A stretch of 64,000 nt of DNA, taken from positions 1,632,001 to 1,696,000 of the forward strand of contig NZ_JAQNDL010000001.1 of the NCBI RefSeq assembly GCF_028368995.1. Reading direction: 5' to 3'. The translations under genes were made by a program, and so were the position numbers. Source of the DNA: Nannocystis bainbridge. GTDB lineage: Bacteria; Myxococcota_A; Polyangia; Nannocystales; Nannocystaceae. This document shows positions 3,146 through 55,206 of the stretch, piece by piece. Below the pieces are notes generated by a model. It ran no database searches. It was not told where the DNA came from and saw nothing but the letters and a program-made list of their open reading frames with translations. Numbering within the stretch: the stretch's first letter is position 1; every line of letters begins with the position of its first letter.

Positions 3146-3167
3146 TCACATGTCCTTCAGGACAGCA
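3146..3167. repeat. 14-bp-period CATG element (1.5 units)
   Basis: cacatgtccttcaggacagc; CATG at 3149, degenerate CAGC at 3163. Confidence 0.55.
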
Positions 3168-3295
3168 CGAAGCACGAGCGCCGCCGGTATACGCCCGGCG
3201 CGGACCTGCGCGCGTGACCGCCCCCGCCGGCCCGCCCTCCGAGGACGCGAGGAGCCGGCCTTGCCGGGCATCCGCCGGCCATCCATCCTTGCAGC

Positions 3296-4258
3296 ATGAC
3301 CTTCGCTTGTGCTCGCCTGGCCTCGTGCGCCTTGCTGCTCATCCTCTCCTGTGGCCCGGGCGTCGGTGAATCCGACACCTCGTCCACCGGGACGCCCGGG
3401 CCCTCGACCACCTCCTCGAGCGACCCCGCGAGTTCGTCCGACAGCAGCACCTCCGCTCCCACGAGCGACAGCGACGGCGCCACCTCCTCCTCCGCGAGCG
3501 ACAGCGACGCCACCGCCTCCACCTACACGAGCGACGCCACCACCACCTCCTCCACCAGCGACGCCACCGCCTCGACCAGCGAGCCCTCCACCGTCACCGG
3601 CGATCCCCCTGGCCCGGCCCTGCCAGCCGGCTGCGAGTCGACCGATCCCGAGGTCGCCGCCGGGTTCGCCATCGCGCTGCCCGGCTGGCCCCCCGACCAC
3701 ACGCTGCCACCGCTCGAGTTCGTCACCTGCGTCATCGACGAGGTCATCGTCGACGTCATCGTCGACGTCGACGTCGTGACCACGAAGTTGACTTGCGACA
3801 TCGCCGGCACCCTGCGGCCGGTCGAAGTCACCATCGACGCCGGGCCCGAGGGCCCGGTCGCCTGGGGCGCCGGGCAGTCCGTGCGTCTGCGTCACGCCGA
3901 CATCGAGGGCGACAGCATCCGCCGTTCCCTCCACATGAAGCCGATCGATGACGACGACGCCGTCCTGATCCTCGCGCTCGACATGTTGAACGGCGACGGC
4001 CTCGACGTGTTGGGGTCGCCGCTGCAGATCGACGTCGAGCTCGCCTGCGATCCGGAGATGACAGGCGAGTCCCGCCCGACCCTGCTGCGCTTCGGCCTGC
4101 CCGACGACTCGGACGCTCTGGAGCTGTTCAACGGCCACCGCGGGGTCCTCGCTATCGACGACGCCTTCGCCTACGCCATCGACCTGGCCGAGTCCCGCGG
4201 CAATGCCCTCCATCCCGACGGTCGCGTCCAATTCCTGATCCGCAGGGTCGCCGACTGA
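3296..4258 (+). CDS. Hypothetical lipoprotein with Ser/Thr/Asp-rich linker
   Basis: LLLILSC lipobox-like signal, low-complexity S/T linker, globular C-terminus. Confidence 0.7.
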   Translation: MTFACARLASCALLLILSCGPGVGESDTSSTGTPGPSTTSSSDPASSSDSSTSAPTSDSDGATSSSASDSDATASTYTSDATTTSSTSDATASTSEPSTVTGDPPGPALPAGCESTDPEVAAGFAIALPGWPPDHTLPPLEFVTCVIDEVIVDVIVDVDVVTTKLTCDIAGTLRPVEVTIDAGPEGPVAWGAGQSVRLRHADIEGDSIRRSLHMKPIDDDDAVLILALDMLNGDGLDVLGSPLQIDVELACDPEMTGESRPTLLRFGLPDDSDALELFNGHRGVLAIDDAFAYAIDLAESRGNALHPDGRVQFLIRRVAD

Positions 4259-4304
4259 CCCTCGCGTAGCGTGAACCCTCCTGGTTCTTCTAACAATGCC
4301 AATA

Positions 4305-54600: not shown

Positions 54601-55001
54601 ACCACCCCGACGTCGTGCACCGCCACCACGTTGGGGTGGCTCAGCCGGGCCAGCGCCCGCGCCTCGCGGATCATCCGCGCCGCCTCGCCCGGGCTCGCGT
54701 CCGGCCGCAGCAGCTTGAGCGCCACCTTGCGGTCGAGCTCGGGGTCGTGGGCCGCGTACACCGCCCCCATCCCGCCGGTCCCCAGCAGCGACAGCACCAC
54801 ATAGCGCCCGACCACGCTGCCGCGCACCCGCGTCGGCCGGGCCGCCCCGTCGCCCGTCGCCGCCAGCCCGTCCGACCCCGCCGGCAGCGTCTCCGACGCC
54901 CCCAGCAGCGCCTCGCGCTCCTCCGACGGCCGCCCGGAGCTCTGCGGCCCTTGCAGCAGGGTGCGTTCGTCGTGGTCCACGGAGCGGCGGCCGATCGTCA
55001 T
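51675..55001 (-). CDS. Membrane Ser/Thr kinase with TPR repeats
   Basis: GTGGMG, HRDFKPDN, DFG, GTPAYMAPEQ, TM helix, ALAIRE..LGPDHP TPRs; start may be GTG at 54980. Confidence 0.92.
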   Translation of the reverse strand: MTIGRRSVDHDERTLLQGPQSSGRPSEEREALLGASETLPAGSDGLAATGDGAARPTRVRGSVVGRYVVLSLLGTGGMGAVYAAHDPELDRKVALKLLRPDASPGEAARMIREARALARLSHPNVVAVHDVGVVGDGEVDEVFIAMEFVDGATLRGWLRQRSRSLREIVEVFAAAARGLAAAHAVDLVHRDFKPDNVMVGRDGRVRVMDFGLARAGGAVASREPSVTGDLRASATDVRLTRAGTRLGTPAYMAPEQWMDDEVDARTDQFALCVALWEALYGERPFRGESVHELMFSVTEGPLGRPPEGPRRVPGWLGRVLERGLARSPSRRFESMEALLVELERGLARQRRRPLLFGLLAVGLVAAGVLGLRARSAAGCAAAGREIEAVWHERARAGLHAALLATGAPFAETSFQKAVPRIDRWAGAWAELRTQVCTEAEVDGSRPPALYRQAVACLDERREALAALLEVFTSDSAANVQRLVPAMAGLAALEPCAEKSYLERMPAPPDDAATRERVHGLRRELQQARGRLAAGDCGGLTQAEAMLAAAEALPHPPLVVAARDLVADLAECGDAFARAEAALRQVYVEAEAQRADEVAAGAAIQLVATIGRDRARAAEALQWALPAEVIVQRLGETRGLLGASLAQNVARVHASRGEYEQALAGMEQALAIREELLGPDHPTVATALDVIGGIHRSRESLDAALAAQTRALAIRREALGADHPAVGVSANNLGLLEQQRGNYDAALPLLEEAVAVAEHALGPDDLEVGTSLNNLGRLQHVRGRYAEARTLLTRALAIREARLGPSDLDVAVTLQNLGLLELLEGNRLAARELLQRVLTIRERKLDEAHPEVVAILDSLGTLNYRIGSYAEAQALHERALAIQQRMLPAGHPDIASSLRNLALVRAARGEREAALAQASEAATMAEQALGPSHPDLAPMLNTLGLLQRRGDPTAAVATLERALAISARARGRKHPATGTSLLRLGEAHLARGALTEAEASLSEALAIREGLGRETPEVAEVLVALGELELARGQSVAAVPVLERAVQIRSKGGIAGHQRAEAQFHLARALAPNDPPRSRELAQQAAATLREAGPGFVEELAAVEAWLRP

Positions 55002-55169
55002 GCGGACCTTAGCCCGGACGGAGTACCCGCCGCCCGGGAAAAAATTGCCCGCCGGCCACAAAACCCCCGCTCGCGGATCCGCCCACCCGTGGACGCCCTC
55101 GCGGCGGGGCGCCGCCTCGCCGTGAAGCGCTCGCCCGTCTTGCGAGCGGCGCCCAGACCGCTGCGCACG

Positions 55170-55206
55170 TCACATGTCCCCATGAGCATGTCCTGAGGAC
55201 CAGGCC
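55170..55206. repeat. 14-bp-period CATG element (3 units)
   Basis: CATG at 55173 and 55187, CAGG at 55201. Confidence 0.7.

Follow-up and report, generated by a model that had tools for sequence, protein, structure and literature searches.

Repetitive extragenic palindromes and bacterial interspersed mosaic elements (REP/BIME) are described as highly repeated hairpin palindromes that are mostly extragenic, lie at 3′ ends and in convergent gaps, cluster with regular spacing, vary in copy number and have proposed roles in mRNA turnover and protein binding (PMC3333891). A second paper presents Rickettsia palindromic elements (RPEs) as palindromic repeats that sit in frame in unrelated genes and are translated as an extra peptide, SPRITE of Streptococcus pneumoniae as a sequence resembling a Rho-independent terminator, and CIR of Caulobacter as strictly intergenic (PMC10969869). 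Inverted pairs of DNA uptake sequences (DUS) or uptake signal sequences (USS) have been described in terminators. Here we analyze a family of short palindromic arrays in a 64-kb stretch of the Nannocystis bainbridge genome (G000, contig C1:1632001-1696000), which we refer to as the window. The repeated unit is a 10-nt palindrome with the consensus GGACATGTCC, followed by 4 weakly constrained bases and repeated head to tail, and the register is therefore 14 nt. We put the probability at about 0.5 that these arrays are a REP/BIME-like hairpin repeat which changes length by whole units, probably acts as a two-way hairpin at RNA 3′ ends, and is also read by a sequence-specific partner.

Like REP/BIME of Escherichia coli, Pseudomonas and other bacteria, the arrays are abundant hairpin palindromes of variable copy number, many of them at 3′ ends and in convergent gaps, and we take REP/BIME as the closest working analogy. 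REPs are imperfect palindromes of about 35 nt. The unit found here is instead 10 nt long, fully palindromic and locked into a head-to-tail 14-nt register, and about a fifth of the arrays lie inside genes, unlike REP/BIME. We found no REP-associated tyrosine transposase (RAYT; a Y1 transposase, PF01797) in the source genome (90.5% complete), in 11 of 11 genomes of its genus, in the one array-bearing genome of another genus (G061), or in seven of seven genomes of genus g4; elsewhere in the family the search was positive in 20 genomes, and it also picked out 6 of 14 controls. Since RAYT was not found in the genus, we can rule out a RAYT-associated REP. The initial annotation of the window had held that these loci are not classical REPs. 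This statement is right as to membership (no RAYT, a 10-nt unit, tandem phase), and REP/BIME is still the closest working analogy.

Other known repeats compare less well. The resemblance to RPEs lies in some 597 arrays that are in frame within genes, in linkers between conserved domains; RPEs, however, are single insertions of about 150 bp that fall into families, whereas the arrays are built from tandem 14-nt units with 42-nt length steps, and most copies are extragenic. With DUS/USS the arrays share a genus-specific 10-12-mer in thousands of copies whose inverted pairs form terminator-like hairpins after genes, but the strict tandem phase and the palindromic nature of the unit itself set them apart. 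SPRITE and CIR are likewise dispersed intergenic repeats with stable stem-loops, but they are single, longer and similar to MITEs (miniature transposable elements bounded by inverted repeats), in contrast to phased 10-mer arrays without a U-tract. CRISPR loci share with the arrays, in a purely formal sense, fixed-length palindromic repeats and fixed-length variable spacers. CRISPR repeats measure 21-48 nt with spacers of similar length and form a few long arrays, whereas the repeat here is 10 nt and the spacer 4 nt. With 2,946 short gene-end arrays of at most 11 units and spacers too short for information, CRISPR was rejected (cas genes were not part of the search). A match to an already described element, which would have counted against the initial annotation, did not appear, as the arrays have no Rfam match and the searches made brought up no describing paper: those for Nannocystis or myxobacterial REP literature gave nothing relevant, with subscription journals largely uncovered. 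Among the matches listed, GGACATGTCC appears only as a p53 half-site and in unrelated contexts, and the searched passages of the RepRanger paper make no mention of myxobacteria.

Every locus named in the initial annotation contains in-phase units on re-reading, and all of the listed palindromic loci stand: CATG-N10-CATG occurs 15 times in the window, against a mean of 0.48 and a maximum of 3 in 100 dinucleotide-preserving shuffles. The proposal that these loci belong to a genome-wide system also proved correct. Across the whole genome (11.05 Mb in 5 contigs, 71.5% G+C), 3,736 pairs of CATG are separated by 14 nt, compared with 72 at 13 nt and 262 at 15 nt, and harmonics appear at 28 (2,073), 42 (1,586), 56 (751) and 70 nt (383) above a background of about 70-130, or about 260-320 at multiples of three. 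Exact CATG cores chain into 2,074 arrays and 6,213 units. When core variants are allowed, a weight-matrix caller that requires two or more units per array returns 2,946 arrays with about 8,500 units; the reversed genome, used as the control, gives 36 arrays. Arrays of two to seven units number 1,744, 460, 306, 245, 148 and 31, and a few reach 11. Among the spacers, 128 of the 136 possible strand-symmetrized 4-mers are represented. Neighboring RRCATGYY motifs are found 1,676 times at 14 nt, 16 times at 13 nt and 10 times at 15 nt, from which we estimate that the phase is about 98% exact.

The exact 10-mer is present in 956 copies, against a single copy of the reversed control, with 629 copies in intergenic DNA and 327 in called genes. 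A sequence favored by a competence receptor could accumulate by biased uptake and recombination, with inverted pairs doubling as terminators as in Neisseria and Pasteurellaceae. A genus-specific motif at about 0.8 units per kb, present in intergenic as well as coding DNA, would suit such an uptake signal, as would the inverted-repeat uptake sequences that have been placed in terminators. We nevertheless regard this origin as very improbable, because uptake signals do not occur in strictly phased tandem arrays, the 14-nt phase would be left unexplained, and the intergenic density of the 10-mer is 9 times its coding density. Still less credible is the methylation of clustered sites, which the initial annotation had offered, or enrichment of the palindrome through methyltransferase-coupled very-short-patch repair of the kind proposed for HIP1 in cyanobacteria. 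The palindromic core does contain CATG/RCATGY, a common class of methyltransferase target, but CATG is not depleted outside arrays, and neither the phase nor the 3′-end position would be explained. The repair endonuclease Vsr (PF03852) was not found in the source genome and turned up in only 1 of its 10 congeners, so that its occurrence does not follow that of the arrays.

Gene positions were taken from a crude, purpose-made caller that relies on third-position G+C and returns 8,071 genes covering 81-84% of the contigs. The enrichment of arrays in intergenic DNA and at 3′ ends, noted in the window, extends over the entire genome. Among convergent gaps, 706 of 1,498 (47%) hold an array; the figures are 805 of 5,072 for co-directional and 168 of 1,496 for divergent gaps, and 1,609 of the 8,071 called genes have an array at the 3′ end. 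The preference is sharper for exact-CATG arrays of at least four units, with 369 in convergent, 200 in co-directional and 14 in divergent gaps, and 24 in called genes. Divergent gaps hold about twice as many bases as convergent gaps, yet few arrays. Within co-directional gaps, arrays stay close to the upstream gene, with median distances of 21 nt to its stop and 192 nt to the start of the following gene. Mapped to the single base at 1,028 ends of arrays with at least three units, most first units begin from -3 to +20 relative to the stop; positions +6 and +11/+12 stand out as sharp maxima, with a minor one at -8, which indicates that the stop codon is often part of a unit. In 215 of 699 array-bearing convergent gaps, arrays come within 25 nt of both stops, and the longest arrays run from stop to stop across the gap.

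Because the consensus unit is its own reverse complement, it has no defined orientation. Every unit can pair with any other, and two adjacent units form a 10-bp stem with a 4-nt loop. The predicted folds of the window arrays have z scores from -2.7 to -5.6. The 1,003 two-unit arrays show compensatory covariation: the variable bases next to CATG in one unit and in the other change together with an odds ratio of 3.58, at inner and outer pairs alike, compared with about 0.9 within a unit. The commonest 24-mers consist of an asymmetric unit followed by its reverse complement, and asymmetric variants tend to alternate, for example GGACATGCCC and then GGGCATGTCC. Inverted core variants are in excess as well (CCTG-CAGG, 42 against 29 expected; TATG-CATA, 7 against 1.9). 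The internal units of longer arrays tend to be asymmetric, with within-unit odds ratios of 0.15-0.4. No preference for stable tetraloops was seen on the sense strand (TTCG 28 versus CGAA 26; GAAA 24 versus TTTC 16), and at 70% G+C hairpin strength discriminates too weakly to be of use (array-bearing gaps -26.8, convergent gaps without arrays -25.9, divergent gaps -23.8). A single long hairpin with paired spacers does exist at positions 10835-10925 and 40690-40745 of the window but is not the general rule, as genome-wide the spacers add about 1 kcal/mol and symmetry about the array center is near expectation.

On the sense strand, stem variants compatible with G·U pairing outnumber A·C-type variants. 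This asymmetry has two parts of similar size, one linked to the gene strand and the other to the locally G-rich strand: the ratios are 2.4-2.8 and 1.7-1.9 where the sense strand is also the G-rich strand, and about 0.9 where the two are opposed. In convergent gaps the G-rich strand has ratios of 1.3-1.5. Spacers carry an excess of purines on whichever strand is locally G-rich (G/C 1.4-1.7, T/A 0.8-0.85) and have no gene-strand effect. The corresponding values for ordinary intergenic DNA are 1.2 and 1.0, and stems are instead G+T-rich on the G-rich strand. The sense-strand effect is thus specific to stems and supports a role at the RNA level, although mutational causes are possible for this effect too. 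As a separate observation, in 200-kb windows about 78% of called genes fall in regions of negative GC skew (contigs as oriented), and gene strand is not biased by skew (907 versus 883, and 3,176 versus 3,105).

For the arrays at gene ends, a two-way hairpin at the 3′ end of RNA is the most likely role. They would be transcribed as the 3′ end of the mRNA, where stacked hairpins could limit read-through from both directions and shield the end from exonucleases. Among the four candidates put forward in the initial annotation, RNA 3′-end elements best match the position, the hairpin covariation and the strand asymmetry. Several observations weigh against this explanation. The positional evidence depends on the crude gene caller, which gives exact stop codons but not exact start codons. 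An array lies at most 150 nt downstream of 5 of 102 tRNA genes, which is near chance. Covariation in longer arrays is clear for the end pairs only and is otherwise weak and noisy. Part of the strand asymmetry tracks the G-rich strand rather than transcription and may have a mutational cause. Among 554 oriented arrays, at least 5 T within the next 12 nt are seen in 6.5%, against 4.2% on the other side, and a TTTT run follows in 1.1%; with no U-tract behind the hairpin, the arrays are not canonical intrinsic (Rho-independent) terminators. The roughly 597 arrays within genes also count against it, since a strong terminator would be harmful there. Finally, when 400 arrays sampled from 689 were given spacers drawn from the pool, their mean folding energy shifted by only about 1 kcal/mol, from -27.4 to -26.4, and hairpin energy therefore does not explain the strict 4-nt spacer and register.

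Unit sequence and register are held far more tightly than hairpin stability needs. Cooperative sites for a protein, another candidate of the initial annotation, would be the simplest way to account for the strict phase. This tightness, together with the conservation of the register and the 10-mer across species and their presence in a second genus, leads us to infer a sequence-specific, register-sensitive partner, most simply a protein, that would also read the arrays. A rival explanation would make the arrays phased sites in duplex DNA. A dimeric protein would bind each palindrome, polymerize in 14-bp steps and mark gene ends, either as a transcription roadblock or insulator in convergent gaps or by recruiting topoisomerase at positive supercoils, and hairpin potential would be a by-product. 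The 98% exact register, kept across species while the flanks take insertions and deletions, speaks for this explanation, as do the depletion of arrays from promoter-bearing gaps and the recurrence of one 10-mer at thousands of loci with unrelated spacers, which selection on structure alone would not need. Unit, phase and placement at stops are moreover shared by G061, whose congeners have 0-1 matches, as if the reader were transferable. We consider it unlikely all the same: no candidate protein was identified, about 600 arrays lie within genes, and covariation between units with an odds ratio of 3.58 and a stem-specific strand asymmetry are not expected of independent sites.

The arrays of the window, with the genes that adjoin them, are the following.

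3146-3165: a full unit (caCATGTCC, core at 3149), the spacer ttca and a half unit GGACA, read directly from the sequence.
4305-4328: two-unit array, cores at 4308 and 4322, in the convergent gap between genes 3332-4258 (+) and 4342-4986 (-, TetR family).
10842-10921: six-unit array, five CATG cores in phase at 10845-10901 and a CAGG core at 10915; the stop of gene 10154-10849 (+) falls within the first unit and the next gene starts at 11049 (+); single long hairpin on either strand, fold z about -4.
12884-12907: weak two-unit array, GATG core then CATG core, beginning 6 nt past the stop of the MutS-like gene 11049-12878 (+); absent from the list in the initial annotation.
28086-28109: variant pair, cores CCTG and CAGG 14 nt apart at 28089 and 28103.
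31376-31399: two-unit array, cores at 31379 and 31393, 25 nt downstream of the stop of gene 31424-33142 (-).
35129-35166: three-unit array, cores at 35132-35160, 13 nt past the stop codon of gene 33248-35116 (+, amidohydrolase) and followed by called gene 35266-35538 (-); fold z -5.0.
37083-37106: two-unit array, cores at 37086 and 37100, taking up all 27 nt that separate the convergent genes 36647-37084 (+) and 37112-37486 (-); unit 1 draws its first bases from the TAG stop at 37082-37084.
38202-38267: five-unit array, cores at 38205-38261, 16 nt beyond the stop codon of gene 38283-39191 (-, AraC family); sense-strand fold z -3.5.
40697-40734: three units, an AATG core at 40700 and CATG cores at 40714 and 40728, after gene 39854-40675 (+); the flanking spacers GAAG and CTTC pair.
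49770-49793: one unit (49773), then an in-phase degenerate unit with core CACC.
55170-55207: CATG units at 55173 and 55187 and a CAGG unit at 55201, downstream of gene 55304-56311 (-).

The CCTG/CAGG pair is the most frequent core variant across the genome. Genes next to these arrays (TetR, MutS-like, amidohydrolase, glyoxalase, AraC, NmrA-like, FG-GAP and Ser/Thr kinase) are functionally unrelated to one another. At gathering thresholds, Rfam returned no family at the arrays and a sole match in the window, an nhaA-I riboswitch (RF03057) at 8250-8300 on the minus strand that scores 53 bits against a gathering score of 37. For positions 3029-9336, four relatives show no long match in their 100-kb syntenic blocks even though the DNA on either side is collinear with them, and this stretch may be an insertion or rearrangement in the source genome. 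The FG-GAP repeat gene 40911-42815 (window 40787-42815) is present in one copy; relatives have two or three tandem paralogues that are 73-79% identical.

In relatives with 84-90% identity in the flanking genes, arrays stand at the same gene ends, with different unit numbers and spacers. Their 100-kb syntenic blocks contain 9-13 arrays each, and orthologous gene ends with arrays were seen in four or five relatives. The gene end at 38202-38267, for example, has arrays with other unit counts and spacers in five relatives, and two-unit hairpins occur at the 3′ ends orthologous to 35129-35166 in 3 of 4. At the 40697-40734 locus, an array is present in G010 and absent from G005, G007 and G001, where the gap measures only 20-22 nt. 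An orthologous array aligned from four species runs without interruption for about 65 columns and keeps CAT unchanged at every 14-nt step, while the segment between stop and array contains gaps of 8-17 nt. The orthologous gene end in two other genera (G011 and G019) provided nothing informative. Two local duplications were noted in passing. Between the orthologues of window positions 35118 and 35188, the site of the three-unit array at 35129-35166, G001 has about seven tandem repeats of about 100 bp with one CATG each. In G007, at about 1380-1480 of locus L006, 41 bp are duplicated in tandem, with a two-unit hairpin (CCACATGTCC-TCGG-GGACATGC) in both copies; the site is the orthologue of the gene end at window 38283.

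How units are gained and lost can be read from the spacers and core variants. In 75 of 1,670 cases (4.5%) two adjacent spacers have the same sequence, compared with a background of 1.2%, and direct pairs of core variants are in excess (CAGG-CAGG, 63 against 13.5 expected). Both observations indicate that arrays grow by whole-unit tandem duplication, and the same process would account for expansion and contraction alike. Arrays of 8 units that all share one spacer also occur, among them arrays of non-palindromic units (GGACAGGYCC x8, GGTCATGYCC x8). Almost all three-unit 38-mers are distinct (1,649 of 1,670), and the 10 shared ones lie in large duplicated segments, and on this ground we rejected recent copy-and-paste. 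Self-BLAST gave 185 repeat pairs and 69 segments of 700-4,000 bp; none of the 45 termini inspected has unit-like inverted-repeat ends, and one duplicated pair (C1:2499639-2501839 and 2502063-2504263) ends at an array. Few copies of insertion sequences (IS) are present. With distinct 38-mers, few repeats and no unit-like ends among those 45 termini, we rejected a MITE or IS origin. The idea of a non-autonomous mobile repeat, raised in the initial annotation, thus survives in so far as arrays grow by whole units in tandem; the distinct 38-mers and the lack of any transposase partner in our searches speak against mobility.

The same dynamics could come about without any cellular function. Slippage or template switching at hairpins might seed and expand a palindromic minisatellite that the cell merely tolerates. 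Recent duplications that include non-palindromic units, the CAGG-CAGG excess, arrays that reach both stops (215 of 699 convergent gaps), orthologous gaps that differ in whether an array is present, a patchy phyletic distribution, and in-frame arrays translated as 14-residue repeats in variable linkers and C-terminal tails are all in line with this explanation. We find it doubtful, if a serious contender, because units should decay like spacers in the absence of selection or drive, whereas cores and register are kept between species, and because hairpin covariation needs selection or templated correction. Nor do the 38-mers, distinct but for copies in large duplicated segments, the missing RAYT, the scarcity of IS copies and the 45 inspected termini favor a selfish element.

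The claim that all loci are intergenic is valid for the window but not for the genome, in which about 600 arrays, mostly of two units, lie in frame within genes. Called genes contain 847 of the 2,946 arrays. Of these, 680 keep a distance of over 150 nt to the called start and of over 60 nt to the stop, and 597 of the 680 have coding-like flanks, defined by third-position G+C above 0.8 in the gene frame on both sides. By size, from two to seven units, the 597 number 467, 90, 25, 6, 5 and 4. Three units make 42 nt and encode 14 residues, in repeats such as G-H-V-x-x-D-M-S-x-x-T-G-P-x. Where a frame would give ACA-TGT, ACA-GGT is often found in its place, and this replacement would explain the common CAGG/CCTG core variant (its frequency was not counted).

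Five genes with intragenic arrays were fetched, of which three were searched in five relatives and two aligned, with orthologues from five and four relatives. All three genes searched have full-length orthologues. A membrane protein (L054, G000:C3:1012872-1015292) has orthologues that are 67-76% identical and shares RAWPxDHVSSDMPDRTW with them in six genomes, but an exact in-frame duplication of 14 residues (42 nt, three units) is found in the source genome alone. The C-terminal tail of this protein and of its orthologues (L059-L063) is a species-variable run of G-x-x-D-M-x-E-G-A-G-S repeats. These repeats appear to be translated units, as if the frame had run into an array (one repeat was checked by hand). 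In a SIR2-like protein, whose orthologues are 84-89% identical, conserved domains flank a variable linker that contains the array; one relative has a gap of 18 residues at this place. Judged from these reading frames, intragenic arrays would be translated and tolerated in linkers and tails. Overall, arrays persist where they are harmless: past stops, in convergent gaps, and in in-frame variable linkers and protein tails.

The array family is confined to one Nannocystis-like genus and one genome of another genus. A three-unit RCATGY pattern has 850 matches in the source genome, 475-536 in five large genomes of the same genus, 5-12 in four smaller congeners and 0 in one congener (64% complete). 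G061, from another genus and 67% complete, has 44 matches, and the other 61 genomes of the family have 0-2, with 0-1 in the six congeners of G061; the backwards control gives 0 everywhere. Arrays of G061 likewise begin at the stop codon or lie between convergent frames. Sixteen genomes from other families of the class contain no two-unit match. In a collection of species genomes, three exact units occur in one named record only, a metagenome-assembled genome of a Nannocystis sp., and 2.9 million viral contigs yield 8 scattered two-unit matches. The case of G061 could be explained by a gene-end marking system whose gene moved between genera with the repeat. In such a system, a register-sensitive protein would read GGACATGTCC every 14 bp at thousands of gene ends, possibly promote the addition of units, and may stop convergent transcription or manage supercoiling. 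We offer this idea tentatively, as a rather improbable one. If true, transcript ends would be set by a protein-read DNA code instead of generic terminators.

The hairpin explanation that we favor, a duplex code read by a protein and a functionless minisatellite are not mutually exclusive. What is notable among REP-like intergenic palindromes is the 14-nt tandem register, the scale, the fact that no RAYT was found, and a double life as protein linker. REP-like families may thus exist without RAYT and be built from a 14-nt tandem unit, and the same DNA may be recruited as a protein linker. The exact register provides a clean experimental handle in the search for a partner. For annotation, arrays would be useful as marks of true stop codons and operon ends, and as an engineering part they may serve as ready-made two-way insulators or terminators for GC-rich bacteria. 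In this 11-Mb genome, about half of the convergent gene pairs and a fifth of the genes end in a stereotyped phased array. Whatever its nature, the reader of these arrays would shape transcript ends genome-wide in a genus of natural-product bacteria.

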